64,000 nucleotides of DNA from Eubacteriales bacterium. GTDB taxonomy: Bacteria; Bacillota; Clostridia; Oscillospirales; CAG-272. The notes below the pieces were generated by a model that was not told the origin of the DNA, made no database searches, and saw nothing but the letters and a program-made list of their open reading frames with translations. The DNA lies in NCBI GenBank assembly GCA_051867895.1, contig JBJDZH010000005.1:103487-167486 (forward strand), read 5' to 3'. Below, piece by piece: positions 1,770-64,000 of the stretch; within the stretch, counting starts at the first letter, position 1, and the number at the start of each line of letters is the position of its first letter. The translations under genes were made by a program, and so were the position numbers.

Positions 1770-2335
1770 GAGAAACGCAAAGGGAAACGCAAAGGGAAAC
1801 GCAAGGGGGGCGCCTTTTGAAAAAGGCGTCCCCCTTGACCCCCCGCGAAAACTTTCGGGCAAAAACAGGGGTATCGTACAGGCTAAGGTGTATGGTACCA
1901 TGGATCAGTATGAAAGTTTCTGAGGGGTACGGGGGACTCTGCTGCGGGGGAGAGGACCATCTCAGACGCCGAAGTTCCTCTCCCCCGCATCCCTCTCTCC
2001 TTGGCTGAGGGAACGGTTTCTCATGCGTCGCTCCATCAAAAACACAAGGAGCGCGAGCGCGAACGTGTTTTTCGGGAGGGGCGTGCAAGGTGAATTCTGA
2101 CGATTCCGGCTGCACGCTGCCGCGCTGCACGGCATCCGGAGCGATAGCGAGCGGATTTCGCTGTGCTTTGACGGGGATTCAGTGTGAAAGTTTAAGGGGG
2201 TGTGGACGACATTGCGCTCCGCGCAAGTCGGCGAGGTTGCGCAAAGCGCAACCTCGCGGGAGTCTTATTCATAAGGTTCCCCCACGGCGTTCCCCCGCAT
2301 CGTTCTCCCGCCCCGCGTCCCCTGCGCCACGTCCA
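1770..2335 (-). repeat. Mosaic intergenic repeat cluster 1: Z-A-B-degenerate P-B', then a reverse-oriented core G/F/E/D/C/B', then Q and Z'
   Basis: Three 12-bp units GGGAAACGCAAA at 1776-1803. Hairpin A at 1802-1837 (caaggggggcgccttttgaaaaaggcgtcccccttg). 45-bp hairpin H1 at 1944-1988. Module D (aacacaaggagcgcgagcgcgaacgtgttttt) at 2040-2072. Module Q double hairpin (gacattgcgctccgcgcaagtc / gcgaggttgcgcaaagcgcaacctcgc) at ~2205-2258. All modules recur elsewhere in the window. Confidence 0.9.
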
Positions 2336-6979: not shown

Positions 6980-7014
6980 GGGTTCCTCCTGAAATATACA
7001 GAAGTAAGGGAATA

Positions 7015-7560
7015 CGCCGGGGGAAACTTTTTGAAACAAGTTTCCCCCATGCCCCTTTCAAAAACTTTCATACTGAATACACAATACTGTGCAGCGGGAT
7101 TTTCTTCGTGCGGTACTCTGTTTTTGCTCTGAGAGTTTTGGGGGAACATCTCAGTTATGGAGAAAGACTCATTCACCTCGCATTGCGGGGGAGAGGACCA
7201 TCTCAAGCGCCTCGCATTGCGGGGGAAAGGACCATCTCAGACGCCGAAGTTCCTCTCCCCCGCAACCCTCTCTCCTTGGCTTCCGGAGGGAGGGTGCGGC
7301 ATTTCGCTTTCCACATCAAAAAACACAGGGAGCGCGGGCGCGAACGTGTTTTTCGGGATGGGCGGGCAGAGGGAATTCTAACGGTTTCCGCTGCACTCTG
7401 TCGCACCGCACGGCATCCGGAGGGATAGCGGACAGGTTCTACTGCGCTTTGACGGGCATTCAGTTTGAAAGCTCTTGAGGGGGTGCGGGGGAACTTCTTG
7501 CAGAAGTTCCCCTGCATCGTTCTCCCCACGCCCCTTGCCTCCGCATCCCCTGCTGTTTGC
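7015..7560 (-). repeat. Mosaic repeat cluster 2: A-B-degenerate P-B', then a reverse-oriented core with 2 tail units, then A and Z'
   Basis: Hairpin A at ~7019-7049 and 7485-7515. Tail units at 7146-7218. H1 at 7219-7263. Modules E/D/C at 7264-7460. The cluster fills the whole birA-amidohydrolase spacer. Confidence 0.9.
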
Positions 7561-10171: not shown

Positions 10172-10185
10172 GACGCCGGGAGATA

Positions 10186-10375
10186 CCGGGGAAAACTTTT
10201 TGAAAAAAGTTTTCCCCAAGCCCTTTTCCAAAACCTTCAAACGGAACGCCCGGCGCCGTGCAGCGGAATTTCCGCTGTACAATACCCCTGTTTTTGCCCC
10301 GAAAGTTTTGGGGGCGTGGGGACTTTTCCAGAAAGTCCCCGCATCGTTCCCCCTCCTGCACGGGGACGGGCGGCA
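10186..10375. repeat. Mosaic repeat cluster 3 (A-B-small hairpin-half P-B'-A'-Z'), without a long core
   Basis: Hairpin A at 10188-10217 (ggggaaaactttttgaaaaaagttttcccc). Palindrome cagcggaatttccgctg at 10261-10277. A second A-type hairpin ggggacttttccagaaagtcccc at ~10318-10340. Confidence 0.8.
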
Positions 10376-12159: not shown

Positions 12160-12385
12160 GGAACGGAGAACGGGGAACGGAGAACGATGCGGGGGCTTTT
12201 TGAAAAAAGTCCCCGCGCCCCCAAAAACTTTCGGGCAAAAACAGGGATACTGTACGGCGAAATTTTCGCTGTGCGGGACTGTATATCAGTTTGAAAGTTT
12301 TTGAAAGGGGCACGGGAAAACTTTTTTCAAAAAGTTTTCCCCGGCATATCCCTTCCCCCGGCGTCTCCCCGTATCCCCTGTGGGC
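12160..12385. repeat. Mosaic repeat cluster 4 (Z-A-B-degenerate P-B'-A'-Z') between iorA and iorB
   Basis: Z units ggaacggagaacggggaacggagaacg directly after the iorA stop. Hairpin A gggggctttttgaaaaaagtcccc at ~12191-12214. A' gggaaaacttttttcaaaaagttttcccc at ~12314-12342. The repeat lies inside an operon. Confidence 0.85.
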
Positions 12386-15922: not shown

Positions 15923-16142
15923 GCTGCTGCCTGCTGTGTTCGTGATGCGTGAGTAATTAAACCCACAGATAACAAATGGAGCCCGGACTTCTCCTGCCGG
16001 TATGCAGACCTCCCCCGCGCCGCTCCTTTGACCGGCGCGGCGGACGCTGGGAGCACAAAACAGGAGAGAGGGCACCGCCCTTGCGAAAGCAGGGTTTCTA
16101 TCTTCTTGCGCACACGGCACGGCGGGTATTTTTGCCGGTACC

Positions 16143-18440: not shown

Positions 18441-18444
18441 CGAG

Positions 18445-19230
18445 CGGGGAAAGTGCAGGGGAAGGCAGAGAACGGAACGCAAGGGGGCTTTTTGAAAAAA
18501 GCCCCCTTGACCCCCCAAAAAACTTTCATACTGAATCCCCGCCAAGGCACAGCGAAGCCAACTCGCCACCTCTCCGGTTTCCGTGCAGCGCGCCGGAGTA
18601 CAGCGGAATCTGTCAGACCTAACCCTCCCCGCCCCTCCCAAAAAACACGTTCGCGCACGCGCTCACTGTGTTTTTGGATTCCGCGCTCCTTGTATTTTTG
18701 ATAAGGAGCGCACCACTCCCCTCAGCCAAGGAGAGTGGGGGGCGGGGGAGAGGAACTTCGGCGTTTGAGATGGTCCTCTCCCCCGCAGCACGAGGCGTTT
18801 GAGATGAGACGCGAACACGGGCACGCCGCAGGAAAACGCGCAAGAAAACGCAAGGGGGCTTTTTGAAAAAAGCCCCCTTGACCCCCAAAAACTTTCATAC
18901 TGAATCCCCATCTAAGCACAGCGAAGCCAACTCGCCTCCTCTCCGGTTTCCGTGCAGCGCGCCGGAGTACAGCGGAATCCGTCAGACCTAACCCTGTACG
19001 CCTCTCCCGAAAAACACGTTCGCGCACGCGCTCCTTGTATTTTTGATAAGGAGCCCCCATCTCCCCTCAGCCAAGGAGCGCGGAGTGCAAGGGAGAGGAA
19101 CTTCGGCGTTTGAGATGGTCCTCTCCCCCGCATACGAAGCGTTTGAAATTGTCTTCTCCCCCTCAATACATGAATGAGATTTCCCCGCGGCCAAATCATT
19201 TGAGCGGAACTTTCTTCAAAAGTTTTCCTT
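18445..19230 (+). repeat. Mosaic repeat cluster 5: two tandem full-length cores (Z-A-B-C-D-E-F-G x2) plus a terminal A-type hairpin
   Basis: Hairpin A at 18480-18509 and ~18848-18877. H1 at 18742-18786 and 19087-19131. The two copies are collinear over ~360 bp each. A-like gcggaactttcttcaaaagttttcc at 19203-19228. Confidence 0.92.
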
Positions 19231-20844: not shown

Positions 20845-21412
20845 GAAGGCGCGATACGGGGAACGGAACACAAGGGGGCTTTTTGAAAAAAGCCCCCTTT
20901 ACCCCCAAAAACTTTCATACGAAATACCCATCTAAGCACAGCGGAACCCACTCGCTACTCCTCCGGATACCGGAAAGCGCGCCAGAGTGCAGCGAAAATC
21001 GTCAGATCTCACTCCGCCCGCCCCGCTCGAAAAACACGTTCGCGCACGCGCTCCTTGTGTTTTTGATAAGGAGCGCCCCCATCTCCCCCCAGCCAAGGAG
21101 AGAGGGGTGCGGGGGAGATGAACTTCGGCGTATGAGATGGTCCTCTCCCCCGCATACGAGGCGTTCGTGATGAGACGCAGCGGCAAAAAAGCGCCACGAA
21201 GAGAACGCGCAGGGGATCCTTTTTCAAAAGGCTCCCCAAACCCCCGCAAAAACTTTCATACTGAAAAGCAGGGATATCGTATAGCTCAGCCAGTACGATA
21301 TCCCTGCTTTTGTCCGATAGTTTTTGAAGGGGGACTGTGCGACATTGCGCTCCGCGCAAGTCAGCGAGTTGTGCAAAGCGCAGCATGCGGAACTTTTGTC
21401 AAGAAGTTCTCC
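20845..21412 (+). repeat. Mosaic repeat cluster 6: forward core, then Z-A-B-P-B'-Q-A; overlaps the 3' end of the ROK gene
   Basis: Hairpin A at ~20872-20900. H1 at 21109-21153. P hairpin at 21264-21311. Q at ~21330-21380. The terminal A-type hairpin gcggaacttttgtcaagaagttctcccc (21387-21414) contains the ROK stop codon. Confidence 0.9.
21264..21311. terminator. P-module hairpin, a bidirectional intrinsic-terminator-like element
   Basis: aaaa-GCAGGGATATCGTA-tagctcagccag-TACGATATCCCTGC-tttt. Confidence 0.65.
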
Positions 21413-22373
21413 CCGGCACGTCCCTCTGCGCGTCTCCGGCGAACGCTATGGAAAGCGCCGCCATATCGCCGATCGCTTCGCCGAGGGCGGCGGGAACGAT
21501 CTCCGGGGCGCGGAGCGCCTCCGCTCGCAGTGTTTGCTCCATGGAAGGTCGCAAAAGCGCTTCACTGCGCGCGAAGATACTGCCGATCACGATCCGCTCC
21601 GGATCCAGAAGATCGGACAGGATCGCCAGCGTCCTGCCGAGCATCGCGCCGCTCGTCTCGTACACGCGGCGGCAGAACAAGTCTCCTTCCACCGCCAGCG
21701 CGGCAATGAGCGCAGCCGTCACGCCGTCCTCCCCGCCCGCACGGGAAAGAAGCGCCGACGCGCCCGCCTTATCCTCCCGCGCCATTTGCAGACCGAGACG
21801 TGCGATGCCGCCGCCCGAGCACCAGCCCTCGCAGCTGCCCGCCTTGCCGAAGCCGGACGGCCCGGCCGGCGTCAGCCGCACATGTCCGATCTCCCCTGCC
21901 GCGTCCGACGCGCCGCGGTAGAGCCGCCCGTCCAGGATCAGCCCGGCGCCGAGCCCCGTCCCGAACGTCAGAAACACCATGTTCCGCGTTCCGCGCCCCG
22001 CGCCGTATCTCCATTCCGCGACCGCGCACGCGTTCGCGTCGTTCTCCAGATACGCCGGAACGCCGAGGCGCTCCGTGATGAAATCCGCTGCGGGCACCTC
22101 GTCCCAGCCGGGCAGATTCGGCGGCGACAGGATCATCCCCTGCGCGCTCGACAGCGGTCCTCCCGAGGAGATCCCCGCTGCGCGCACGTCCGGGTTTCCT
22201 GCCGCGCGCAGCATTTCCGCGGCGGCGTCCGTGAGCGCGCCGAGCATGACGGACGGCGCGCTCTTTGTCGGAAAGCGGCGCTTGTCCAGCACGCGCAGCG
22301 CGCCGTCCTTTTCCTCACCGAGCGAAACGGCGCATTTCGTGCCGCCGATGTCAAATCCGACGCAGATGCTCAT
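21399..22373 (-). CDS. ROK-family sugar kinase
   Basis: 324 aa. N-terminal [15 protein letters not shown]-binding motif, ROK signature region and GHVRL...CxGxxGC-like segment. ATG 22373 overlaps the gyrA stop (ATGA). Confidence 0.85.
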
Positions 22374-24904
22374 GCCTCCGTTTTCTCCTCTGCACCCGGC
22401 TCCGCGCCGTTTCCGGCGGCATCGCTTCCGGCGCCGTCCGAATCGCTCTCCTGCGCCGCGATGGCGATATTGCAGATCGAATCGTCCGTGCCGACTCTCA
22501 TGACGATAACACCCGCTGCCGTGCGTCCGTACACAGGAATACCCGCGGCAGGCGTGCGGATGACAGATCCGCTTTCAGTAATCATCATCACGTCGTCCGT
22601 ATCCGTCACGACGCCGATGCCGGCGAGTCTGCCGGTCTTGTCCGTCAGGTTGTGGCAGGTCACGCCCTGAATAGCGCGTCCCTTCGGTTCAAACGCCGAC
22701 GGCTCCATGCGCTTGCCGAAGCCGCCTTCCGTGATGGTCAGCAGCCTGTGCGTTTCATTCCACGATGCGTCGCGGTACAGCACCGCCGCGCCCGCCACCT
22801 CGTCGTCCCCGACGAGGCGGATGCCCATCACGCCGGACGCCGTGCGTCCCATCACGCGCACTCTCTCCTCCGCGAAGCGCGCCGCCTGACCGTCCTTCGT
22901 CGCGATCAGTACGTCCGCCGTTCCGTCCGTCTGCGCGACGAAGAGCAGCTCGTCGCCGTCTTCCAGCGTCAGGGCGATCTTGCCGCCCTTGCGGTTCGGA
23001 CGGAATTCGGAGAGATTCGTGCGCTTGATGGTTCCGCGCCGCGTCACCATCAGAAGCGTCTGCGCATCGCTGAAATCGTCGTCCACGGCGATCATGGCAG
23101 TCAGGCTTTCGCCCTGCTCCAACTCCAGCAGATTGACGATATTCGTCCCCTTTGCGGTCCGTCCCGCCTCGGGGATCGTGTACGATTTCCGCGCGAACAC
23201 ACGCCCGCGACTCGTAAACAGCAAAAGCGTTGCGTGACTGTGGACGACGGCGATCTTATCGATGAAGTCGTCCTCCTTCGTCGTCATGCCGATGACGCCC
23301 TTGCCGCCGCGGTTCTGCGCGGAATAGGTGTCGGCGGGCAGCCGCTTGATATAGCCCGCGCGCGTCAGCGTCACGACGCAGTCCTCGCGCTCGATCAGAT
23401 CCTCATAGACGATGTCGTCCTCCGCCTCCATCAGCGCCGTCCGGCGCGCGTCGGAGTAGCGCTCCTTGATGTCGAGCATCTCGTCCCGGATGATCTGCCG
23501 GATGCGGCCCTCGTCGGCGAGGATCGCCTTCAGATCGGCGATCGTCTTATACAGCTCCGCCAGATGCGCCTCGATCTTCTGCCGCTCCATGCCGGAGAGG
23601 CGGCCAAGCGTCATGGAAACGATGGCGGCTGCCTGCTCCTCGCTCAGGGAGAAGCGGTTCTGCAGATTCACTCTCGCCTCAGCGACGTCGGCGGATGCGC
23701 GGATGATGCGGATCACCTCGTCGATGTTGTCCACAGCGATCTTGTAACCCTCGTAGATGTGCGCCTCGCGCGTCGCGCGGTCGAGATCGAAGCGGACGCG
23801 GCGGGTGATGACGTCCTCCTGGAAGCGGATATATTCCGTCAGCAGCTGCTTGAGGTTCAGAACTTTCGGTTCCCCGCGCACAAGGGAAAGCATGTTGACC
23901 GCGCAGGTATCCTGCAGCTGCGTGTATTTGTAGAACTGATTCAGAATCAGCTGACCGTTCGCGTCGCGTCGGTATTCGATCACGATGCGCATGCCGCCTC
24001 TGCCGCTCTCGTCCCGGATCTCGGTGACGCCCTCGATGCGCTTTTCTCGCACCTGTTCCGCCATCGATTCGATGAGCATCGATTTGTTCACCTGATACGG
24101 GATCTCCGTGATGATGATGCGGTGGTGCTCCTCCTCGATCTTCGCCGTGGCGCGGACGAGGATGCGCCCGTGCCCCGTCATATACGATTCATAGATGCCG
24201 GCGGAGCCGTAGATGGCGGCGCCGGTGGGGAAATCCGGTCCCTTGATATACTGCATGATCTCGGGGATTGACGCGTCCGGATGCTCCATGAGGAAAATCG
24301 TGCCGTCGATGACCTCGCCGAGGTTGTGCGGGGGAATGTTTGTCGCCATACCGACGGCGATGCCGACAGAGCCGTTGACCAGCAGATTCGGAAAGCGGGA
24401 GGGAAGCACGGACGGCTCGTTTCTCGTGTTGTCGAAGTTGCGGTCCCAGCGGATGACATCCTTTTCGATATCGCGCACCATTTCGTCGGAGAGACGGGAG
24501 AGGCGCGCCTCCGTATAACGGTAGGCGGCGGCGCCGTCGCCGTCGACGTTGCCGAAGTTGCCGTGTCCCTCGATGAGCGGATAACGGAGCGAGAACGGCT
24601 GCGCCATACGGACCATCGTGCCGTAGACCGCCGCGTCGCCGTGCGGATGATAGCGTCCAAGAACGGCGCCGACAGTCGTTGCGGACTTGCGGAACGCCTT
24701 GTCCGCGGTGAGCTTGTCCTCGTACATGGTGTAGAGGATACGCCGTTGACCGGGTTTCATGCCGTCGCGCACGTCCGGCAGGGCGCGGGATACGATGACG
24801 GACATGGAGTATTCAATGAAAGATTTGCGCACCTCGCGCTCCATGTCGACGTCTATGATTTTCTGATCCGGAAATTCCAGAGGATGCGGTGTATTCTTAT
24901 CCAA
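22370..24904 (-). CDS. gyrA: DNA gyrase subunit A
   Basis: 844 aa. [29 protein letters not shown] and [10 protein letters not shown] (active-site Tyr) motifs, and a beta-pinwheel C-terminal domain. Confidence 0.97.
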
Positions 24905-24960
24905 AACAGCTTCTCCGTTTCTGTGGTGAATTTTTCATAACGGCGATCCGAAAAAGCGCC

Positions 24961-25965
24961 TTACGCAATGCCGTCCAGCGGCGGGTACGCGCCGCCCGGC
25001 GTCGCGATCTTCCTGGATGCCGCGCGGGAAGCCGCCGCAAGGGATGCCTCCTCGCTCATGCCGCGCTCATACAGGCAGTACAGGAACGCGGCAAGGAACG
25101 TGTCCCCCGCGCCCTTCAGCGTCCGGATGCGCTCGACGCGCACCGACGGCGCAAAATACATCTCCCGTCCGCGGCACAGATACGCGCCGGCGGAACCGAC
25201 CGTTGTTAGAACCGCCGTTTCGCCGCCTGTCGTCACGCAGATCTCCGCCGCCGCTGCCGGCGCCTGTTCTTTTGTCAGACGTCTTTCCGTCAGAGCCGCC
25301 AGCTCATCCAGATTCGGCTTGATGTAATCCGGATGCGCCGCGACCGCGTGCCGCAGCGCGTCCCCGTCGCAGTCGCAGACTGTCAGGGCGCCGTGGAGGC
25401 GGCAGCAGCGGATCAGCTCCGCATATGTATTCTGCGGCATGTCGGACGGGATGCTCCCCGCTAAAACCACAATGGAGCGCTCGCCCGCCGCAGCGTTCTT
25501 TTTTATCAGGCGCGAGAGCAGCAGCCGCACCTTGGAAAGCAGTTCCGCCGTTTCAGACGCGGAGCGGATGCCCGCCGCGCCGGAGTTTCTTCCGTCGTCT
25601 GACTGCCTGTCGGAGGCGCTCCGCATCGGGGGATTATTGATCTCGCACTGACATCCGCCGGACGCCGTGTCCGGGGACACGATAGAAATATTAACTCTCG
25701 TGTCGGCGCTTGTCGCAATCACGCGGACTGCGACATCCTCGGCAAGCAGCAGGCTCCGGATCTTAGAGCCGGTGAAGCCGCCCAGAATGCAGACGGCGTC
25801 ACTCTCTCCTCCCAGCGCATGCAGCGCGCGGGAGACGTTGATGCCCTTTCCCCCGGGGGAAAAGGCGGCGTTCTCCGAGCGGTTCAGTCCGTCGGGGACG
25901 AGCGGACCCGCCAGATTGATGTTCATGTCCAGCGCCGGATTCAGCGTAACGGTTATGAATTTCAT
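24961..25965 (-). CDS. PfkB-family carbohydrate kinase (1-phosphofructokinase / tagatose-6-P kinase-like)
   Basis: 334 aa. TVTLNPALD...GGKGINVSRAL and C-terminal GAGDTFLAAF motifs. Contains a low-complexity insertion (NNPPMRSASDRQSDDGRNSGAAG). Confidence 0.8.
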   Translation of the reverse strand: MKFITVTLNPALDMNINLAGPLVPDGLNRSENAAFSPGGKGINVSRALHALGGESDAVCILGGFTGSKIRSLLLAEDVAVRVIATSADTRVNISIVSPDTASGGCQCEINNPPMRSASDRQSDDGRNSGAAGIRSASETAELLSKVRLLLSRLIKKNAAAGERSIVVLAGSIPSDMPQNTYAELIRCCRLHGALTVCDCDGDALRHAVAAHPDYIKPNLDELAALTERRLTKEQAPAAAAEICVTTGGETAVLTTVGSAGAYLCRGREMYFAPSVRVERIRTLKGAGDTFLAAFLYCLYERGMSEEASLAAASRAASRKIATPGGAYPPLDGIA

Positions 25966-26042
25966 GATGCTTTTTGATTTCCTTCTGAATTTCCTTCCGG
26001 AAAAATTTGATATTCTGACCGTATGCGTACAGCCTTGACGGC

Positions 26043-26070
26043 AGAAAACGGGGAAAGCGGCATTTCCCCG
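26043..26070 (-). terminator. Rho-independent terminator of the 26082 gene
   Basis: The reverse strand reads CGGGGAAA-tgccgc-TTTCCCCG followed by ttttctg. Confidence 0.65.
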
Positions 26071-26081
26071 CGCCGGGAGGA

Positions 26082-26771
26082 TTACTTCTTCTTTTTGCTA
26101 AGGATGATGCAGCCGGCGGCGGCAGCGGCAGCAGCCGCTGCGATCACGACTGCGGCATCCGCCGTCGGAACGCTGGCAGCAGGCTGCTGCGGCTGAGCTG
26201 CCGTTTCGGTGGGAGCTGCCGTCGTAACGGGAGCCGTTGTTTCCACCTTATCTTCAGTCAGAACCTTCATTTCCCAGAAAGTGAGCCATGCGTTCACCTT
26301 CACGCCGTCAAAGGTGTCATAAATGTTGTCGGAGGTATCCGTTTTGCCCCAGCAGTGCAGCTTGATGTATTTTGCATTGTGCGTCTTGTCGAAATCAAGA
26401 GCGGAATAGCCCTTCTCTTCCGTGGCGACCTTGGTATCACCGCGCTTGAAAGCGACGGTCCAGTTCTGGTTATCCGTAGAAACCGAAACCTCCACATCAT
26501 AGAAACGGGTATGTCCGTTAAACCAGGAAATATCCAGTCCCTTGACCGGGTATTCCTTGTCCAGCTCGACGATCACTTCCACGCCGTCGATGTCGTCCAC
26601 ATTGATCGACATACGGGTGTTCATATCCTCGTCAAAGCCATATTCAAGCGGATAGCCTTCCTGGAAAGCGGCGCTCGACATGTCCTTGATCTTCGCTTCA
26701 CCGGCGAAAACAGAGACGCTCATTGCCGCCGCAAGAAGGGCGGTCAGTGCGATTGCTGCGAATTTTTTCAT
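26082..26771 (-). CDS. Secreted discoidin (F5/8 type C / CBM32-like) domain protein with a Pro/Thr/Ala linker and C-terminal TM anchor
   Basis: 229 aa from MKKFAAIALTALLAAAMSVSVFA|GE (signal peptide). DISWFNGHTRFYDVEVSVSTDNQNWTVAF matches the discoidin pattern. The tail ...PTADAAVVIAAAAAAAAAGCIILSKKKK is a hydrophobic helix plus basic cluster. The track start at 26858 is upstream of the signal peptide. Confidence 0.65.
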   Translation of the reverse strand: MKKFAAIALTALLAAAMSVSVFAGEAKIKDMSSAAFQEGYPLEYGFDEDMNTRMSINVDDIDGVEVIVELDKEYPVKGLDISWFNGHTRFYDVEVSVSTDNQNWTVAFKRGDTKVATEEKGYSALDFDKTHNAKYIKLHCWGKTDTSDNIYDTFDGVKVNAWLTFWEMKVLTEDKVETTAPVTTAAPTETAAQPQQPAASVPTADAAVVIAAAAAAAAAGCIILSKKKK

Positions 26772-26883
26772 GATGATGTCTGCGTCCGGGGAGGCCGGAC
26801 GCATTCCTTTCCTGATTTTCTGCGGGAAAACGCCGCCTGCCGCCAAGGCTGCGCGCATACGGATGACAGCTGCGCCGTCGGTA

Positions 26884-28854
26884 TCAGATATCCAGAAACT
26901 GTGCGTATTTTGCGTTTTTCGCGATGAAATCGCGCCGCGGCTCGACCTTATCCCCCATCAGAAGGGAGAAAATCTCGTCGCAGGCGGATGCATCCTCGAT
27001 CGTCACGAGCTTGAGCGTCCGCTTCTCCGGATCCATCGTCGTATCCCAGAGCTGATCCGCGTCCATCTCGCCGAGACCCTTGTACCGTTCCGCCTCGATG
27101 CCGGAGCCGCCGCCCAGCTCTGCGATACAGCGGTCGCGCTCCTCGTCCGAGAAGGCGTACAACTCCTTTTTGCCGCCCCGCCGGTACACCTTATACAGCG
27201 GCGGCATCGCCAGATATACATGCCCCGTCTCGATCAGCGGTTTCATGTGCCGGAAAAAGAACGTCAGAAGCAGAATCTGGATGTGCTCGCCGTCCACGTC
27301 CGCATCGCTCATGATGATGATCTTACCGTAGCGCAGCCGGGCGAGGTCGAAATCCTCACCGATGCCGCAGCCGAGCGCCTGGATGATCGGCGTCAGCGAT
27401 ACATTGGAGTATACCTTGTCGAGGCGGGATTTCTCCACATTCAAAACCTTGCCGCGCATCGGGAGGATCGCCTGGAACTTGCTGTCGCGCGCGTCCTTGG
27501 CGGAGCCGCCTGCGGAATCTCCCTCGACGAGGTACAGCTCCGTCAGATCGACCCGCTTTTCGTTGCAGTCTGCCAGCTTGCCCGGCAGGGTGGATACGGT
27601 GTTCAGAGAGCTTTTGCGCGCGCTCTCCCGCGCCCGTCTTGCCGCCTCGCGTACGACGAACGCCGTCACGGATTTATCGGTGATGGCGCGTCCGACGGCG
27701 GGGTTTTCCTCCAGGTATTCCGCCAGCTTTGAGGAGACGATGCTCTCGACGACGGTACGCACCTCGGAATTGCCCAGCTTCGCCTTTGTCTGCGACTCAA
27801 ACTGCGCGTCCGGCAGCTTGACGGAAACGACGGCGCACAGTCCCTCGCGCACGTCCTCGCCGGAAAGATTTTTATCCTTTTCCTTGAGGGCGCCGGTTTT
27901 GCGCGCGTAGTCGTTGATGACCTTGGTCAGCGCGCTCTTGAAGCCGGTCTCATGCGTGCCGCCGTCGATGGTCGCCATATTGTTGGCGAACGTCACGATG
28001 TTTTCGTTGTAGGAATCGTTGTACTGCATGGCGACCTCGGCGGTGATGTCGCCCTTTTCCGCCTTCATGTAGATGACCTCGGGGTGGATCGGCTCAACGC
28101 CCTTCGCCGCGTTCATGTGTTCGACAAAGGAGCGGATGCCGCCCTCGTAGCAGAGGTCGTCCTCGCGGGGGATCCTGTTGCCGTCCTCATCCTCGATCCT
28201 ATAAGCGGAACGCTCGTCGCGCAGCGTGATGCGGACGCCCGCGTTCAGGAACGCCTGCTCCCGCATACGCTTGAGCAGCGTGTCGTAGTCGAACTCGATC
28301 GACTCGCGGAAAATCTCCGCGTCCGGCTTGAAACGCACGGTCAGACCGTGCCGCTCGCCGCAGCTGCCGAGGCACGTAAACGGACGGGTAATCTCGCCGC
28401 GCTCCATGCGCAGCGTGTATTCCTTTCCGTCGTGGCAATTGTCCACCTCCATCCATTCGGACAGAGCGTTGACGACCGACGCGCCGACGCCGTGCAGACC
28501 GCCGGAAATTTTGTATCCGCCGCCGCCGAATTTTCCGCCGGCGTGCAATACCATAAAGACGACCTCAAGCGTCGGGCGGTTTTCCTCGGCGTTGAAGCCG
28601 GAGGGAACGCCCCGTCCGTTGTCCGCGACAGAGACGCTGCCGTCGTCGTGCAGAACGACATGAACGGTGTCGCACCGTCCCGCCATCGCCTCGTCGATGG
28701 AGTTATCGACGATCTCATATACGAGATGATGCAGCCCGCGCGCACTGGTCGTGCCGATATACATGCCGGGACGCTTGCGGACGGCGTCCAGCCCCTTGAG
28801 CACCTGTATTTGCTCGTCTTCGTAGATTCCCGTGATATCGCTTTGATTTGGCAT
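26884..28854 (-). CDS. gyrB: DNA gyrase subunit B
   Basis: 656 aa. LEAVRKRPGMYIG-type motif (LDAVRKRPGMYIGTT), GHKL ATPase, and Toprim EGDSAGG and PLRGK(V)LNV motifs. Confidence 0.97.
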   Translation of the reverse strand: MPNQSDITGIYEDEQIQVLKGLDAVRKRPGMYIGTTSARGLHHLVYEIVDNSIDEAMAGRCDTVHVVLHDDGSVSVADNGRGVPSGFNAEENRPTLEVVFMVLHAGGKFGGGGYKISGGLHGVGASVVNALSEWMEVDNCHDGKEYTLRMERGEITRPFTCLGSCGERHGLTVRFKPDAEIFRESIEFDYDTLLKRMREQAFLNAGVRITLRDERSAYRIEDEDGNRIPREDDLCYEGGIRSFVEHMNAAKGVEPIHPEVIYMKAEKGDITAEVAMQYNDSYNENIVTFANNMATIDGGTHETGFKSALTKVINDYARKTGALKEKDKNLSGEDVREGLCAVVSVKLPDAQFESQTKAKLGNSEVRTVVESIVSSKLAEYLEENPAVGRAITDKSVTAFVVREAARRARESARKSSLNTVSTLPGKLADCNEKRVDLTELYLVEGDSAGGSAKDARDSKFQAILPMRGKVLNVEKSRLDKVYSNVSLTPIIQALGCGIGEDFDLARLRYGKIIIMSDADVDGEHIQILLLTFFFRHMKPLIETGHVYLAMPPLYKVYRRGGKKELYAFSDEERDRCIAELGGGSGIEAERYKGLGEMDADQLWDTTMDPEKRTLKLVTIEDASACDEIFSLLMGDKVEPRRDFIAKNAKYAQFLDI

Positions 28855-28958
28855 GGGTTTTTCCCTTCTCCTGCGTTTTTCCTGTATCGCTGTTCTATTC
28901 TTATATGGATAGGATTGACAAAATCCGGCTCACTTATGCCGGGGAGGGGCAGCGTATC

Positions 28959-29231
28959 TCATATACTCCCGCGCCCGCCGAGGGCGGACACGGACAGGTG
29001 CGAAAACACCACTGTCTCCGTGCGCGCACGCACTTTCTTTTTGCGGCGCGGCGGCGCGAGCAGCAGAAATGATTTCGGCAGATCCCGCCCCGCCATCACC
29101 GCGGCGCCCGCCTTTTCCGCGCGCCGCAGAAAGGACGCTGTGTCCGCCGTCGTGATCTTTCCATCGAGGTCAAAGATACCGACGATCTTTTCCGTGCGGA
29201 CGACCTCGCCCGCTCCCGCGTGCAGAAACAT
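28959..29231 (-). CDS. remB: DUF370 / RemB-like small protein
   Basis: 90 aa, in the conserved Firmicutes position just upstream of gyrB. The I(V)GIFDLD...T motif is typical of DUF370. Confidence 0.7.
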   Translation of the reverse strand: MFLHAGAGEVVRTEKIVGIFDLDGKITTADTASFLRRAEKAGAAVMAGRDLPKSFLLLAPPRRKKKVRARTETVVFSHLSVSALGGRGSI

Positions 29232-29246
29232 GGTCTTTTCCCGTCC

Positions 29247-30443: not shown

Positions 30444-30467
30444 TTCGGTGTCCTTTCGGTGTCTCGG

Positions 30468-30503
30468 AAATATAAATAGATAAATAAAAATATAATAAGT
30501 TTT
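30468..30503. other. AT-rich DNA unwinding element (DUE) of oriC
   Basis: aaatataaatagataaataaaaatataataagttt is a 36-bp block with only 3 G and no C, in otherwise GC-rich DNA. It lies between dnaN and the DnaA-box cluster. Confidence 0.75.
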
Positions 30504-30984: not shown

Positions 30985-31380
30985 CAAACGTCTTGTGTTA
31001 GGGGGGACTCGTGTTGAGGAGGAGTGGTGTATCTCAGACGCCTTGTATTGCGGGGGAGAGGACCATCTCAGGCGCCGAAGTTCCTCTCCCCTGCACCCCT
31101 CTCTCCTTGGCTGGGGGGTGAGGTGACATTTCGCTTTCCTCCATCAAAAAACACAGGGAGCGCGTGCGCGAACGTGTTTTTCGGGAGAGGCGGGCAGAGT
31201 GAATTCTGACAATTCCGGCTGCACGCTGCCGCACGGAATCCGGAGAGATAGCGAACAGGTTTCGCTGTACTTTGACCGTGTCAAAGTCCGAAAGTTTAAG
31301 GGGGCGTGGGGGATTTTTTCAAAAATCCCCCGCGTCGTTCCACCTGCATCCGTGTCTCCTACGGCGTCTCCCGCGTCCCG
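30985..31380 (-). repeat. Mosaic repeat cluster 7: a reverse-oriented full core between the dnaA stop and the oriC boxes
   Basis: Tail units at ~30985-31049. H1 at 31050-31094. Modules E/D/C follow. Hairpin A gggggattttttcaaaaatccccc at 31308-31331. Z' runs up to the dnaA stop (31383). Confidence 0.9.
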
Positions 31381-39974: not shown

Positions 39975-40795
39975 GAAAGCCAAGGAGAGAGGGTTGCGGG
40001 GGAGAGGAACTTCGGCGTCTGAGATGGTCCTCTCCCCCGCACCACGAAGTGGATGAGATGATATGCGGCAGTAAGGGAACGCAGGGGAACGGAACGCAAG
40101 GGGGGCTTTTTGAAAAAAGCCCCCCCTTGACCCCCAAAAACTTCCATACAAAATGCCCGCCAAAGCACAGCGAAATCCGCTCGCCATCCCTCCGGATGCG
40201 GTGCAGCGCGGCAGAGTGCAGCGGAACTCGTTAGAATTCACCCTGCCCGTCCTTCCCGAAAAACACGTTCGCGCCCGCGCTCCTTGTGTTTTTTGATGGA
40301 GGAATGCTAAATGCCACGTCTATCCCCGGGAGCCAAGGAGAGAGGGTTGCGGGGGAGAGGAACTTCGGCGTCTGAGATGGTCCTCTCCCCCGCATCATGA
40401 GGCGGATGAGATTCATCCATCTATAGTTTTTTCCGCATCACGAGGCGGATGAGATTCATCCATCATACAGGTTTTCCCGCAATCAGAGGCGTCTGTGACG
40501 CAAACGCGGGAATGCGCAGGGGGACGCATGGAAACGCCGCAGGAGCCTTTTGAAATAGAGTCCCCGCGAGGCTGCGCTATGTGTAGATCGACGACTTGCG
40601 CTGCACGCAATGTCGCATCCCAGTGCGAAAACTTTTGAGAAAAAACAGGGATATCGTACAGATTCAGCTATACGGTATCCCTGTTTTTCAGCATGAAAGT
40701 ATCTTGAGGGGGGGCGAGAATTGCGCTTTGCGCATTTCGGGCACTGGGAACTCTTTTCAAAGAGTCCCCCGCGCGTTTTCCTGCGTCTCCACGGT
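39975..40795 (+). repeat. Mosaic repeat cluster 10: a truncated E-F-G, a full forward core with reiterated tail units, then Q-B-P-B'-Q'-A-Z'
   Basis: H1 at 39996-40040 and 40349-40393. Hairpin A ggggggctttttgaaaaaagccccccc at ~40102-40128. Tail repeats (ca[ct]gaggcggatgagattcatcca x2) at 40394-40470. P hairpin at 40639-40688. A-type gggaactcttttcaaagagtccccc at ~40746-40770. Confidence 0.9.
40639..40688. terminator. P-module hairpin, a bidirectional terminator-like element between convergent genes
   Basis: aaaaaaa-CAGGGATATCGTA-cagattcagcta-TACGGTATCCCTG-ttttt. Confidence 0.65.
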
Positions 40796-43699: not shown

Positions 43700-44350
43700 G
43701 AAAAACTTTTTGTTTGAAGGGGAAGGGATGCTGGGGGAACTTTTTGCATAAAGTTTCCCCCAGTCCCCTTCCTAAAACTTTTGAGGGAAAAAAGGGATAT
43801 CGTACAGGCTGAGCTATACGATATCCCTGTTTTAGTATAAAAGTTTCTGGGGGTGCAGGGGACTCTTTTCAAAGAGTCCCCTGCGCGTTTTTTCCCGCGT
43901 TCCCTGCGCTTGCGTGGCATCTTACCCGCCAGAGGCGTGCGGGGAGAAAACATCTCATCCACCTCGTGTTGCGGGGGAGAGGACCATCTCAAACGCAGGA
44001 GGATTGCGGGGGAGAGGACCATCTCAGACGCCGAAGTTCCTCTCCCCCGCACCCCTCTCTCCTTGGCTGGGGAGGTGGGGACGCTCTTTATCAAAAAAAC
44101 AAGGAGCGCGGCATACAAAACACAGTGAGCGCGTGCGCGAACGTGTTTTTCGGGAGAGACGGACAGGGTGAGGTCTGACGGATTCCGCTGCACTCCGGCG
44201 CGCTGTACGGCATCCGGAGGGATAGAGAACAGATTCCGCTTGTGCTTATACGGGGATTCAGGTTGAAAGTTTTTGGGGGTCAAGGGGGCTTTTTTCAAAA
44301 AGCCCCCTTGTGTTCTCCCCCCGTCTCCCCTGCATCTGCGTTTCCGCGTG
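43700..44350 (-). repeat. Mosaic repeat cluster 11: B-A-B-P-B'-A, then a reverse-oriented full core with 2 tail units
   Basis: Hairpin A at ~43733-43761, 43855-43884 and ~44281-44310. P at 43788-43833. Tail units at 43938-44005. H1 at 44006-44050. Confidence 0.92.
43788..43833. terminator. P-module hairpin, terminator-like
   Basis: aaaaaa-GGGATATCGTA-caggctgagcta-TACGATATCCC-tgtttt. Confidence 0.65.
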
Positions 44351-46072: not shown

Positions 46073-46885
46073 ATGGGAGCAGATATCCGACGGCAGGACA
46101 TCCACGACGACCGGGACGTATGGGTCCACCGGAAAACAACGGCAGGAATGCAGATGCCGACGCACTGGCATACGCATTTTGAGATCCTGCTCGTGTATGA
46201 AGGTGACTGCCGGATCGCGGCGGGAGGGCGGGAATACAATCTGCGGGAGCCTTTTGTCGTTCTGTACCGCCCGTTTACGCCGCACGGTATGACGGTGTCG
46301 GGTACGTATACGCGGAGTATGGTAAATTTCGGCGCGCGGCAGAGGGCGTTGTTCTCCGAGAGGCTGTTTTCTCTTTCATTTTTGGATCGCGCGCCGCTTT
46401 TTCTTGTGCGCATACCGCCAAGCCGGCTTCCGGAGCTGGAAAAGCTGTTCTCCGCTCTGTTCGCCAACCGCGATGATTTCGCGTGCAGCCAGCTCTATCT
46501 GGCGCTGATCGTGAACTGGCTGCGGCTGGAGGAGGGAGACGCGGACGTTTTCACGGAAGCGGAGCCGTATGTGGAGACGGCGCTGCGCTATATGGGGGAA
46601 AATCTGTCGCAGCCGCTGGCGCTGGAGGAAGTGGCGCGGCACTTCGGCGTCGGACGGACAAAGCTGAACCGGGATCTGCGCGAGGCGGTCGGCATGACGT
46701 TCCGACCGTATCTGACAGAGCTGCGGCTGACGCGCGCAAGAGAAATGCTGCTCGACGGCTTCTCTGTGACCCGCACAGCCTTTGAGTGCGGATATTCCGG
46801 CGAATCCCATTTTATCTGCGCTTTCCACCGCCGCTGGGGCGTTACGCCCGGTGCAATGAAAAAACAGGGATATCGTACAGGCTGA
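46073..46885 (+). CDS. AraC-family transcriptional regulator
   Basis: 270 aa from MGADIRRQD (GAGGAGG SD). Cupin-like N-terminal half and C-terminal AraC HTH (FECGYSGESHFICAFHRRWGVTPG). The last 8 codons and the stop lie in the P hairpin. Confidence 0.85.
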   Translation: MGADIRRQDIHDDRDVWVHRKTTAGMQMPTHWHTHFEILLVYEGDCRIAAGGREYNLREPFVVLYRPFTPHGMTVSGTYTRSMVNFGARQRALFSERLFSLSFLDRAPLFLVRIPPSRLPELEKLFSALFANRDDFACSQLYLALIVNWLRLEEGDADVFTEAEPYVETALRYMGENLSQPLALEEVARHFGVGRTKLNRDLREAVGMTFRPYLTELRLTRAREMLLDGFSVTRTAFECGYSGESHFICAFHRRWGVTPGAMKKQGYRTG

Positions 46886-46907
46886 GCTATACGATATCCC
46901 TGTTTTT
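46859..46907. terminator. P-module hairpin, a bidirectional intrinsic terminator shared by convergent genes
   Basis: aaaaaa-CAGGGATATCGTA-caggctgagcta-TACGATATCCCTG-ttttt. The AraC stop TGA (46883-46885) lies in the loop. Confidence 0.75.
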
Positions 46908-47495
46908 GTATAAAAGATACTGGGGGTGGGGGGACTCTTGAAAAGAGTTCTCTGCACGTTTTCCCCGCGTTCCCTGTGCTTGCGCGGCATCTTACCCGCC
47001 AGAGGCGTGCGGGGAGAAAATATATCATCCACCGGAGGAATGAGGAAAGAAATCTCATTTTCCGGACTGTGGAGGAAAAACATATCAAACGCCTCGTGAT
47101 GCAGGGGAGAGGACCATCTCAAACGCAGAGGATTGCGGGGGAGAGGACCATCTCAGACGCCGAAGTTCCTCTCCCCCGCACCCCACTCTCCTTGGCTCTC
47201 GGGGAGATGGGGTGCGTTCCGAATCCAAAAACACAGTGATCGCGTGCGCGAACGTGTTTTTCGGGAGGGCTGGCAGGGTGAATCCTAACAGATTCGGCTG
47301 CACTCTGCCGCGCTGCACGGCATCCGGAGGGATAGCGGGCAGATTCCGCTGTGCTTATACGGGGATTCAGTATGAAAGTTTTTGGGGGTCAAGGGGGGCT
47401 TTTTTCAAAAAGCCCCCTTGCGTTCTCCTGCGCTTTTTCCTGCGTCGTTCTCCCCTGCATTGCGTTCTCCCCCGCATCCTTCTCCCCCGCGCCTG
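46908..47495 (-). repeat. Mosaic repeat cluster 12: B'-A, tail units, then a reverse-oriented full core
   Basis: A-type hairpin at ~46928-46950. Tail units at ~47020-47134. H1 at 47135-47179. Hairpin A ggggggcttttttcaaaaagccccc at ~47393-47417. Z' runs to ~47495. Confidence 0.9.
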
Positions 47496-49764: not shown

Positions 49765-50565
49765 GCGGTGGGAATATGCAAGGGGGTGCAGAAGTTCCCC
49801 TGCATCTGCGTTTTCCCCCGTAGCGTTCCCTGTGTCGCGCACCTTACGTTCACGTGTCATCACAAACGCCTCGTGTTGCGGGGGAGAGGACCATCTCAAA
49901 CGCCGAAGTTCCTCTCCCCCGCAGCCCTCTCTCCTTGGCTGAGGGTGAGGTGGCATTTCGCTTTCCTCCATCAAAAAACACAAGGAGCGCGTGCGCGAAC
50001 GTGTTTTTCGGGATGGGCGGGCAGAGTGAGGTCTGACGGTTTCAGCTGCACTCTGCCTCGCTGCACGGTATCCGGAGGGATGGCGAACAGGTTTCGCTGT
50101 GCTTTGACGGGGACTTAGTCCGAAAGTTTAAGGGGGGCGTGGGGGATTTTTTCAAAAATCCCCCACGTCGTTCTATCTTGCGTCCCCCCACGACGTCCCC
50201 CGCGTCCGCGCCTCGTGTTGCGGGGGAGAGGACCATCTCAAACGCCGAAGTTCCTCTCCCCCGCAGCCCTCTCTCCTTGGCTGGCGGGGATGGGGGCGTT
50301 TGCGTCCATAATTACAAAATGCAGCGAGTGCGGCATCAAAAAACACAAGGAGCGCGGGCGCGAACGTGTTTTTGGGGATGGGCGGGCAGAGTGAGGTCTG
50401 ACGGTTTCCGCTGCACTCTGCCTCGCTGCACGGTATTCGGAGGGATGGCGAACGAATTTCGCTGTGCTTTGACGGGGACTTAGTCCGAAAGTTTAAGGGG
50501 GCGTGGGGGATTTTTTCAAAAATCCCCCGCGTCGTTCTCTTGCGTCCGTTCTCCTGCATCCGCGT
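49765..50565 (-). repeat. Mosaic repeat cluster 13: two tandem reverse-oriented full cores filling the nifS-rlmH spacer
   Basis: H1 at 49878-49922 and 50220-50264. Hairpin A gggggattttttcaaaaatccccc at 50141-50164 and 50505-50528. The copies are near-identical, with a ~22-bp indel in module E. An A-type hairpin lies at ~49785-49810. Confidence 0.92.
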
Positions 50566-60961: not shown

Positions 60962-61822
60962 ATGAAATACATCGATCTCCATACCCACTCCCTGAAGAGC
61001 GACGGCTCGCTCACCCCTGCCGGGGTGGTTTGCGCCGCGAAGGACGCAGGTCTGGCTGCCATCGCCCTCTCCGACCACGATTCCGTCGACGGCGTTGAGG
61101 AAGCCGTCGAGGAAGGACGCCGCCTCGGCGTCGAGGTTATCCCCGCCGTCGAGCTGTCCGCCCAGTCGGACACCGAGCTGCACATCCTCGGCTATTTCAT
61201 CGATATCCACAACAAGACGCTGCGCGAAAAGCTCGCCTACGCCCTGCAGGTGCGGGACGAGCGCGAGGAGGAAACCTGCGAAAAGCTGCGCGAGCTTGGC
61301 TTCGACATCACGATGGACGAGGTCCGCGCCGAGGCAAACGGCAATCCCGTCCTCTGCCGCGCGCATTTCGCCAAGATCATGGTGCGCAAGGGCTACGCCG
61401 AATCGGTGAAGGACGCCTTCGCGCGCTACCTTTCCAGCGGCTGCTACGCCTACTCCAACCGGCAGGCGCTGACCGGTCCGGAGGCGGTCTCCCTTATCCG
61501 CGAGGCGGGCGGCATTCCTGTCGCCGCGCATCTGCACCTCATCCGCCTGCCGGACGGTGAGCTGCGGGAATTCCTTTCGTCGCTGATCCCGTACGGTCTC
61601 GGCGGCGTGGAGGGCTACTACACCGATTACACCCCCGATATGCAGCTGCGCTATCAGCGGATGGCGGCTGAACTGGGACTGACGATCTCCGGCGGCACCG
61701 ACTTCCACGGCGCGAATAAGCCTCACATCACTATCGGTCGTGGGCTGGGGGAACTGCGCATTCCCTATACCGTCCTCGACGGGCTGCGCGAAAAGCACGC
61801 CGCGATGGGGAAAAACTTTTGA
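60962..61822 (+). CDS. PHP-domain phosphoesterase (TrpH/YciV-like)
   Basis: 286 aa. N-terminal IDLHTHSLKSDGS and SDHDSVDG metal motifs. The last 5 codons and the stop lie in an A-type hairpin. Confidence 0.85.
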   Translation: MKYIDLHTHSLKSDGSLTPAGVVCAAKDAGLAAIALSDHDSVDGVEEAVEEGRRLGVEVIPAVELSAQSDTELHILGYFIDIHNKTLREKLAYALQVRDEREEETCEKLRELGFDITMDEVRAEANGNPVLCRAHFAKIMVRKGYAESVKDAFARYLSSGCYAYSNRQALTGPEAVSLIREAGGIPVAAHLHLIRLPDGELREFLSSLIPYGLGGVEGYYTDYTPDMQLRYQRMAAELGLTISGGTDFHGANKPHITIGRGLGELRIPYTVLDGLREKHAAMGKNF

Positions 61823-61870
61823 AAAGGGTTTCTCCATCCCCCTTTCAAAAACGTTTGAAATCGGGGAAAG
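61806..61870. repeat. Solo A-B repeat module overlapping the PHP gene's 3' end
   Basis: ggggaaaaacttttgaaaagggtttctcc, followed by the palindrome tttcaaaaacgtttgaaa. Confidence 0.75.
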
Positions 61871-61938
61871 CCGGCTGCGTCCGGCGCGCAGGAAAACACA
61901 GAGAAAAATTATAATTACATAAAAGGAGCACTCCCATT

Positions 61939-63402: not shown

Positions 63403-64000
63403 AAAAGACGCGGACGCAGGGGGTGAGCGCGCAGGGGAACGATGTGGGGAAGCCTTTTGAAAAAGGCTCCCCCACGCCCCCCGCGAAAACTTTCAACCTG
63501 AATTCCCGCCAAAGCACAGCAAAACCTGCTTGCCATTCCTCCGGATGCCGTGCAGCGCGGCAGAGTGGAGCGAAAATCGTTAGAATTCACTCTGCCCGCT
63601 CCACCCGAAAAACACGTTCGCGCACGCGCTCCTTGTGTTTTTTGAAGGAGGAAAGCGAAGCACCGTGTCCCTTTTCCCCTCGAAGCCAAGGAGAGAGGGG
63701 TGCGGGGGAGAGGAACTTCGGCGTCTGAGATGGTCCTCTCCCCCGCAACGCGAGGCGGACGAGATGAAGACACGGACGCAGGGTGAGCGCGCAGGGGGAA
63801 CGATGTGGAGAAGCCTTTTTCAAAAGGCTCCTGCGAGGTTGCGCTAAGCGCAACCTCGCCGACTTGCGCGGAGCGCAATGTCGCCCACACCCCCTTAAAC
63901 TTTCGGACTTGAATCTCCGCCAAAGCACAGCAAAACCTGCTTGCCATTCCTCCGGATGCCGTAAAGCGGACCGAAGTGCAGCCACACCACCCCCGGTCTC
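63403..64000 (+). repeat. Mosaic repeat cluster 15: a full forward core, then the start of a second copy (Z-A-Q-B-C...) running off the window
   Basis: Hairpin A at 63444-63475. H1 at 63702-63746. Second A at ~63811-63840 and Q at ~63832-63885. Confidence 0.9.

Follow-up and report, generated by a model that had tools for sequence, protein, structure and literature searches.

Repeat Hairpins Carry the Stop Codons of Three Genes in a Clostridia Genome: A Probable Case of Tolerated Encroachment on Gene 3´ Ends

Introduction

Fusion of short repeats to the 3´ ends of genes was described in enterobacteria, where the 127-bp element RU-1 is joined to conserved gene ends, the normal stop is eliminated and extra residues are added beyond the conserved domain (Delihas 2007, PMC2759123). 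In Coxiella burnetii, QMITE1 and QMITE2 show C-terminal overlaps of 1–50 bp with many housekeeping genes; enhC is extended into a miniature inverted-repeat transposable element (MITE) in one strain, while an indel puts the stop just before the same insert in another (PMC5896051). Here, we analyse a stretch of 64,000 nucleotides (nt), with a G+C content of 61%, from a metagenome-assembled genome (MAG) of a Eubacteriales bacterium, hereafter referred to as the window. A family of intergenic repeats, built from modules named A, linker, P, C and B, reaches there into the ends of three genes, coding for a ROK-family sugar kinase, a PHP-domain phosphoesterase and an AraC-family regulator. The overlap of gene ends by repeats has thus been described already for enterobacteria and Coxiella, and the window family appears to be a further instance.

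As with RU-1, the position of the stop, inside or just before the repeat, sets the length that is read. However, RU-1 extensions reach about 35 residues, whereas the tails found in the window comprise 2–10 residues, with the stop in a hairpin loop. The alternation described for enhC matches that between the ROK gene of the window and its ortholog in a related genome (L007). The QMITEs nevertheless form a separate family, with defined terminal inverted repeats, direct repeats and a link to IS1111, and no such link was found for the window family. Intrinsic terminators overlapping coding ends offer another parallel, given the P stem and U-tract at the end of the AraC gene; in contrast to them, P, a predicted terminator, is a dispersed repeat within mosaic elements and not a unique sequence.

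In its general organization, the window family resembles the REP/BIME of E. coli and the REPINs, which are also very high-copy, short, imperfect palindromes found in mosaic arrays and in inverted pairs around a short centre. The placement in 3´ untranslated regions is likewise shared, many REPs being located no more than about 20 nt past the upstream stop (PMC12306157). The family works like REP/BIME and REPIN in copy number, mosaicism, inverted pairing and position after stops. Its sequence, however, is unrelated: the copies start with GGGG and lack GTAG at their 5´ foot, and behind every hairpin comes a pyrimidine linker that tracks the hairpin arm in length and composition. The host is also different, a Clostridia lineage, and the module is shared by many phyla. 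A Pfam scan of 27 proteins from the window, those of the genes flanking repeats included, detected no RAYT transposase; no genome-wide search aimed at RAYT was made.

Some features recall MITEs, namely inverted A+linker ends bounding units of about 150 nt, presence or absence of the repeat between the PHP gene and gnd, and a strain indel of about 95 nt past the AraC gene. An autonomous parent insertion sequence was sought in long inverted pairs of three stretches from other genomes (L063, L074 and L127), a small sample; they enclose no transposases, and the open reading frames (ORFs) within them, judged by eye, are of the housekeeping type (a LacI-type regulator, chorismate and EPSP synthases, and an oxidoreductase). 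Because no GTAG, RAYT, target-site duplication or parent insertion sequence was identified, the family is not filed as a proven MITE or REP.

Three Genes That End in Repeat Hairpins

Each of the three genes ends at a TGA located in the loop of a repeat hairpin (Table 1). This had been proposed, with the reading frames, in an initial annotation of the window, and it is corroborated by the coordinates, by independent assemblies and by the NCBI gene calls for the MAG, which give the same lengths (324, 286 and 270 residues for ROK, PHP and AraC, respectively). The hairpins are real copies of an interspersed repeat, also in agreement with that annotation, as indicated by alignments for ROK, by the identity to another copy for AraC and, for PHP, by a match to R1, a covariance model that was trained solely on A+linker copies of other genomes and then run on the window. 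In these genes, the conserved domains end upstream, repeat homology covers the last two to eight codons, and the orthologs either have a shorter end or stop ahead of the element, as expected of C-terminal extensions encoded by repeats.

The ROK gene ends in ...CCG GGG AGA ACT TCT TGA on the minus strand. The Pfam ROK domain spans residues 4–306 of 324, so the tail lies beyond it, and most ROK orthologs end 1–8 residues past a conserved ...AALA(V/I)A. The ortholog of L007 shares 74% identity and the synteny, its start being overlapped by gyrA. There, the order is GGA GAA GCA TAA, a purine leader (GGGGACGCAG repeated), the palindrome GGCTCTTTTGAAAAAGAGCC and then sequence aligning with the C module of the window; that is, the same element as in the window lies 47 nt past the ROK stop. 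The window codons GGA GAC GCG CAG align with GGA GAA GCA TAA of L007, with CAG (21426–21428) opposite the TAA stop. Repeat homology spans the last eight ROK codons, and the protein gains about 8–10 residues past its naturally ragged end.

The ROK palindrome aligns with the canonical palindrome at the same place in L007. Two other copies, of the type 'palindrome + C module', also align with the ROK copy all along leader, palindrome, C module and linker. By these alignments, it appears to be a genuine but decayed repeat copy. Because the syntenic L007 carries the same element, it predates the split of the two genomes. The native stop was probably lost in the window lineage, and eight codons of leader plus palindrome are now read up to the TGA of the loop.

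The PHP gene ends in ...ATG GGG AAA AAC TTT TGA, within an A palindrome that folds at −19.3 kcal/mol (z = −2.5). The ends of the best 120 PHP homologs differ in position by no more than about three residues, and ...RH(R/K)AVMG(K/L/TNK) is the ending of many of them. In syntenic PHP–gnd orthologs (79–81% protein identity), the gene ends in ...ATG GGT AAG TAA, followed by a repeat-free spacer of 23–38 nt, compared with 116 nt in the window. M-G-K is thus ancestral, and the repeat landed at the native stop, so that ...MGK was kept and Asn-Phe was gained.

The AraC gene ends in ...AAA AAA CAG GGA TAT CGT ACA GGC TGA, and its Pfam HTH_18 domain reaches residue 264 of the 270. Homology to the repeats sets in at about 46858, eight codons before the stop, and runs on into a reversed linker and palindrome; the hairpin is 92% identical over 73 nt to the P copy at 43788. 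This P hairpin sits between convergent genes and folds at −28.5 kcal/mol (z = −8.1), with a 13-bp core stem followed by UUUUU (UUUUUGUAU) and A6 on the other side. It is predicted to have the form of a bidirectional intrinsic terminator and may terminate AraC transcription. A simple terminator scan missed it, because the P loop is longer than 8 nt.

Beyond the strain level, only two AraC homologs were found (43–45% identity), with tails as long as that of the window protein. A positional ortholog is present in L018, where the divergent neighbour gene is 63% identical. A P-like hairpin with its U-tract lies 42 nt past the AraC stop there, and behind it come a reversed linker and an A-like palindrome. 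Since such an element lies downstream of the stop in L018, an element of the same kind would be old at this locus, and we infer that the reading frame of the window became fused to an older P hairpin, most simply via a small deletion. A same-species strain lacks a segment of about 95 nt in the repeat region past the AraC gene (window about 47033–47130 versus L014 1900–1990). Repeat arrays thus appear to be polymorphic within the species by insertion or deletion.

The initial annotation had also suggested that the modules inserted into, or recombined with, gene 3´ ends and replaced the native C-termini. Insertion is supported at PHP, where the site is empty in syntenic orthologs, but not at ROK and AraC, where the outgroups hold the element past an earlier stop. 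Replacement is minimal: PHP keeps ...MGK and adds two residues, ROK is extended by 8–10, and the AraC tail is as long as those of its homologs.

Strain Variation and Read-Ins in Other Genomes

The three junctions are also seen in assemblies made independently from other samples (L003, L014–L016, L139 and L140), and the protein lengths are unchanged in all of the strains of the 90% identity clusters. The sequences of the tails, in contrast to their lengths, vary among strains. ROK ends in ...DVPGRTS, ...DVPGRTF or ...EVPGRTF; PHP in GKNF, GKIF or GKIL; and AraC in QGYRTG, QGYCTG or QGYRTD. Pooled over the three proteins, 6 of 22 tail sites are polymorphic versus 35 of 858 in the rest, an increase of about 7-fold (odds ratio 8.8, p = 3e-4). 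The view that the repeats are a source of C-terminal protein variation therefore holds at the strain level. The strain changes in PHP and AraC reduce hairpin pairing, which argues against selection on structure at those copies.

Short-read metagenome contigs L015, L016 and L140 break off within the P hairpin, 4–10 nt past the AraC stop. Gene ends are where the repeats systematically interrupt assemblies.

The same behaviour is seen at copies in other genomes. Among the matches listed, an NrdG-like radical-SAM activase (L073, ...KGTF) and a Na:Ala symporter (L100, ...WGAF) end in the TGA of the loop, and HisD and a GHKL kinase end at the foot of the hairpin. All four verified ORFs that read into A, including ROK and PHP, stop at the loop TGA, which is present in one frame of three (p about 0.01, in a small sample). 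This pattern would be expected of a filter against long read-ins.

The Repeat Family in the Window

Self-comparison of the window revealed about 18 intergenic repeat loci, covering some 12% of it, which are mosaics of the modules A, linker, P, C and B in varying order. Module A is a palindrome (GGGG.. TTTTTGAAAAAA ..CCCC), always followed by the linker, which consists of 3–4 nt, a C-run, pyrimidines and AAAAAC TTT. Module P is a hairpin (AAAAACAGGGATATCGTAC...GTACGATATCCCTGTTTTT) with at least five copies in the window; C is small, and B comprises about 300 nt. Two layouts recur: an inverted A+linker pair flanking a central hairpin (about 150 nt), and a purine-rich leader followed by A+linker and B (about 350 nt). 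Inverted A+linker pairs bound short units at 10188–10340, 12191–12342, 43733–43881 and 21212–21414, and units of 98–165 nt in other genomes.

In total, the 64 kb contain 20 A+linker copies that match model R1 at E ≤ 3e-4, and no pattern matches are expected by chance (0 in shuffled sequence). The A hairpins fold at −18 to −22 kcal/mol, with z from −4 to −5.

The spacing between stops and repeats was compared by hand from the coordinates of genes and of repeat coverage. Coverage begins 0–40 nt past most stop codons in the window, and the common order after genes is stop, purine-rich leader, A palindrome and linker. The distance from the stop to the first A palindrome is 16–70 nt for nine genes and 242 nt for one, and the palindrome lies over the stop in two. 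The gaps between repeats and gene 5´ ends are of 54–145 nt or more. The reading frame enters the repeat in 3 of about 15 junctions between gene 3´ ends and repeats. As repeats press on gene ends and spare promoters, the three overlaps are readily seen as the lower tail of the spacing distribution.

The purine-rich leader between the stop and the A palindrome is made of degenerate tandem units of 9–12 nt (GGAGAACG.., GGGGACGCAG..), is variable in length and is rich in Shine–Dalgarno-like GGAG. It is found at 12160–12190, 18441–18482, 31332–31382, 50529–50570 and 63403–63445 of the window and at 3434–3477 of L007. In the ROK gene, the leader is translated.

Two other accounts of the copies were rejected. 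Replication-strand bias does not set their orientation, since they follow gene direction on either side of the origin. Nor does the hairpin foot act as a −35 box with a −10 element after AAAACTTT: no downstream −10 consensus was found, TAnnnT occurring in 38 of 135 instances at scattered offsets.

Searches for a described family gave negative results. With Rfam 15, only the 6S RNA was matched in the window, with no family at the repeats; at E ≤ 1 over two repeat loci, only a chance-level mir-361 appeared (20 bits against a cut-off of 70 bits, E = 0.97), and 18 loci from other genomes gave no match at the motif. A scan of metagenome contigs for the exact P hairpin returned no match. A full-text literature search with the palindrome sequence gave irrelevant matches only, and a search of the literature on repeats in Oscillospiraceae and Ruminococcaceae gave nothing useful.

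The A+Linker Module across Phyla

A pattern scan of species-representative genomes yielded at least 120 stretches of DNA with the A+linker pattern. The hairpin, which the pattern did not demand, is present in nearly all of the matches. Among those listed are Oscillospiraceae, Ruminococcus, Anaerotruncus and Flemingibacterium, and also Acidocella, Thermodesulfobacteriota, Desulfovibrionaceae, Lentisphaeria, Aminicenantes, Nitrospinota and Thermoguttaceae. Cultured carriers among them are Anaerotruncus massiliensis AT3, Ruminococcus sp. YE71 and FC2018, and Acidocella facilis ATCC 35904. In many phyla, including Clostridia, A+linker is usually positioned 0–40 nt past the stop of a co-oriented gene. 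In other genomes, a co-oriented ORF (at least 150 codons) terminates no more than 150 nt upstream of 65 of 97 motifs, the median distance being about 20 nt; 35 of the 97 have a convergent ORF in the same range, and these distances are evenly spread.

Along the module, a purine-rich arm precedes a TTTTGAAAA loop and a pyrimidine arm; 3–4 nt, a second pyrimidine segment and AAAAC TTT follow. The pyrimidine segment after the hairpin tracks the 5´ arm, GGGAAAAC being found with CCCTTTTC, GGGGAAAC with CCCCTTTC and GGGGGAGGCGCC with CCCCCTCCGCG. The two are correlated in length (rho 0.88) and in A-run versus T-run (rho 0.68), with permutation z of 6–9, values that are inflated by kinship among copies. 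A rule of G to C and A to T is followed at 0.59, versus 0.41 in permutations (z = 6), and fails where the arm contains C. When the linker is read as a reverse complement, a direct copy or a plain reversal of the arm, there is no association (z < 3.5), compared with z = 9 for the parallel-complement reading.

An intramolecular triplex, or an H-DNA mirror repeat that has one arm in common with a cruciform, is classically laid out in just this order: purine arm, loop, pyrimidine arm, spacer and pyrimidine segment. One could speculate, with little confidence, that A+linker is an undescribed cross-phylum element of triplex- or H-DNA-like layout: either a structured 3´-end element that would protect or process transcripts, or a structure-specific target or end of a broad-host-range mobile element. 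If so, the stop-codon overlaps would be the readily noticed part of a general link between the A+linker element and gene ends. A conserved structured module tied to gene ends across phyla would then be a new, testable class of 3´-end signal or transposition substrate.

In another Clostridia MAG (L089, 500–1350), the modules form a head-to-tail array with a period of 135 nt. Each A palindrome belongs to both of the units next to it (A, linker, centre, reversed linker, A), which makes it ambiguous where a unit of the element truly begins and ends. In Acidocella (L019 2673–2804; also L079 and L094), a composite with the linkers outside (AAAGTTTTTTGG ... CCCCCAAAAACTTTT) starts 0–4 nt past the stop of the upstream gene.

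Origin of the Overlaps

The overlaps are probably the result of tolerated encroachment, in which mosaic repeats of a REP/BIME- or MITE-like kind crowd gene 3´ ends and reading frames occasionally run into them and stop at the loop TGA. Small repeats would accumulate where they are least harmful, just past stops. Occasionally, a repeat would land on a stop, or a stop would be lost, and translation would proceed to the next stop, that of the loop. Only read-ins that terminate quickly would survive, which would explain the loop-TGA stops of the verified module-A cases. The tails seem to be tolerated, nearly neutral by-products, because they are short, lie outside conserved domains and vary between strains. 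For ROK and AraC, stop loss or a small deletion is likelier than insertion, because the outgroups already carry the element type past an earlier stop.

Several observations weigh against this account. Mobility rests on a single empty-site comparison, that of PHP, between fairly diverged species (79–81% protein identity); no target-site duplication was found there, the ortholog flanks being too diverged for base-by-base alignment, and no mobilising enzyme was found. The ROK palindrome alone folds no better than shuffles (z = 0.1) and is undetected by R1. The nearest AraC outgroup is only 45% identical, so that the fusion event is inferred, not reconstructed. The same stops in all strains fit neutrality after fixation, but equally fit selection, and the bias in position and orientation across phyla may signal function rather than mere tolerance.

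These last two points are shared by a functional interpretation, which we regard as unlikely: the hairpin at or over the stop would be selected to tune translation termination, protect the mRNA 3´ end or terminate transcription, with the loop stop as part of the design. Placement close behind co-oriented stops, in the window and in many phyla, at distances much tighter than those to convergent genes, would suit such a role, as would the terminator-like shape of P. In addition, REPs lying under 16 nt away from a stop are said to stall ribosomes and lower translation in a passage of PMC12306157 that cites Liang et al. 2015. However, most copies do not overlap a stop, orthologs work without the overlap, no U-tract follows A, and the overlapping copies are the most degenerate, the ROK fold being insignificant and the strain changes in the PHP arm (N/I, F/L) weakening the pairing. 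Moreover, reasoning from the size of the ribosome footprint, a stem with a stop in its loop would already be melted by the terminating ribosome, unlike the geometry of REP stalling.

The hairpins could alternatively be native terminators of these genes or chance palindromes, whose likeness to the repeats would be coincidental or convergent, nothing having moved. The form of P, the AraC tail that equals those of its homologs in length, the ROK palindrome that is not significant alone and the ancestral PHP codons ATG GGN AAR, which already resemble the start of a palindrome arm, can all be read in this way. Such a coincidence is nonetheless highly improbable, and for PHP and AraC it is largely refuted: syntenic orthologs have no repeat at the PHP site, where the inserted piece matches a model from other genomes at E = 4e-6, while the near-identity of the AraC hairpin to another copy continues into reversed linker and palindrome. 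ROK homology likewise spans palindrome, C module and linker, and shuffled sequence yields no pattern matches. Least credible of all is an artefact, whether from gene calling or from assembling a MAG through repeats. Short-read contigs do often break at repeats, as seen past the AraC stop, but the same junctions are found in several independent assemblies, homology fixes the frames as far as the tails, and the NCBI calls are of identical length.

Tolerated encroachment would have consequences for both annotation and evolution. The last residues of some proteins in repeat-rich Clostridia MAGs are repeat-derived and strain-variable, and should not be taken as conserved, and contigs tend to break exactly at the junctions between gene ends and repeats. 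Repeats would reshape protein ends by two routes, insertion at the stop and loss of the stop into an existing element, under a filter that retains only fast-terminating read-ins.

Table 1. Gene ends, repeat modules and repeat copies in the window.
Feature	Position	Strand	Evidence
ROK-family sugar kinase gene, 324 residues	21399..22373	-	ORF; Pfam ROK; 100% match to NCBI MAG protein
ROK stop TGA, in loop of degenerate A palindrome	21399..21401	-	sequence
Degenerate A palindrome (ggggagaacttcttgacaaaagttccgc), outer end of composite repeat	21387..21414	-	69% identity to family reference
Eight repeat-derived codons (R-D-V-P-G-R-T-S)	21402..21425	-	alignment to L007 and repeat copies
Composite inverted-pair unit	21212..21414	.	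A+linker 21212-21256, P 21265-21312, reversed linker, C ~21337-21386, A 21387-21414
PHP-domain phosphoesterase gene, 286 residues	60962..61822	+	ORF; homologs; Pfam
PHP stop TGA, in loop of A palindrome	61820..61822	+	sequence
Solitary A palindrome (61807-61835) and linker (CCCCCTTTC AAAAAC GTTT)	61807..61856	+	R1 match 61801-61857, 34.9 bits, E=4e-6
Segment of ~85 nt missing from syntenic PHP–gnd orthologs, boundaries approximate	61817..61905	+	spacer comparison
AraC-family regulator gene, 270 residues	46073..46885	+	ORF; homologs; Pfam
AraC stop TGA, in P hairpin loop	46883..46885	+	sequence
P hairpin, 18-bp stem, A6 left / U5 right; left arm encodes K-K-Q-G-Y-R-T-G	46859..46907	+	fold; repeat homology
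Reversed linker and A-type palindrome (GGGGACTCTTGAAAAGAGTTCTC) after P hairpin	46908..46952	-	sequence comparison
A+linker copy	1799..1857	+	R1 55.0 bits
A+linker copy	7013..7070	+	R1 53.8 bits
A+linker copy, left end of inverted pair; palindrome 16 nt past AMP-binding enzyme gene stop	10182..10239	+	R1 48.9 bits
A+linker copy, right end of inverted pair with 10182 copy	10300..10349	-	R1 27.1 bits
A+linker copy, left end of inverted pair; palindrome 31 nt past upstream gene's stop	12182..12233	+	R1 51.9 bits
A+linker copy, right end of inverted pair with 12182 copy	12292..12348	-	R1 54.8 bits
A+linker copy; palindrome 42 nt past RNase R stop	18474..18528	+	R1 55.2 bits
A+linker copy, second unit of tandem pair	18845..18897	+	R1 53.5 bits
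A+linker copy opening large B-type element	20865..20917	+	R1 53.5 bits
A+linker copy, inner end of ROK-adjacent composite	21204..21258	+	R1 40.8 bits
A+linker copy; palindrome 51 nt past dnaA stop	31289..31340	-	R1 43.6 bits
A+linker copy	40092..40146	+	R1 49.6 bits
A+linker copy, left end of inverted pair around P at 43788	43726..43783	+	R1 44.5 bits
A+linker copy, right end of inverted pair around P at 43788	43838..43890	-	R1 36.5 bits
A+linker copy; palindrome 61 nt past stop of gene 44369-45901	44264..44316	-	R1 52.5 bits
A+linker copy	47373..47426	-	R1 55.7 bits
A+linker copy	50121..50173	-	R1 43.5 bits
A+linker copy; palindrome 42 nt past aminotransferase stop	50486..50537	-	R1 43.6 bits
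A+linker copy; palindrome 43 nt past gnd stop	63439..63495	+	R1 59.3 bits
P hairpin copy	21265..21312	-	sequence comparison, fold
P hairpin copy	40642..40690	+	sequence comparison
P hairpin copy, intergenic, between inverted A+linker units	43788..43835	+	sequence comparison, fold

Other Features of the Window

The chromosomal origin region lies inside the window (22370–37501), gyrA and dnaA being encoded by the minus strand, rnpA and jag by the plus strand. The ORFs between gyrA and dnaA are presumably gyrB and dnaN. A large B-type repeat (33015–33446) occupies the dnaA–rnpA intergenic region, the expected site of oriC. The jag/KhpB-like gene (35522–37501) contains internal tandem repeats at 36016–36414, with a period of 42–48 nt, which presumably encode a repetitive linker and are unrelated to the intergenic family.

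The 6S RNA gene (15925–16132, plus strand; Rfam RF00013, 54.7 bits) starts 3 nt past the stop of a 109-residue ORF, just upstream of the RNase R gene. Finally, a unique bidirectional terminator hairpin at 3120–3159 (AAAAAGAGGATCCCGT...ACGGGATCCTCTTTTTTT) is common to two convergent genes and starts 3 nt after one of the stops; native terminators in the window also hug stop codons.

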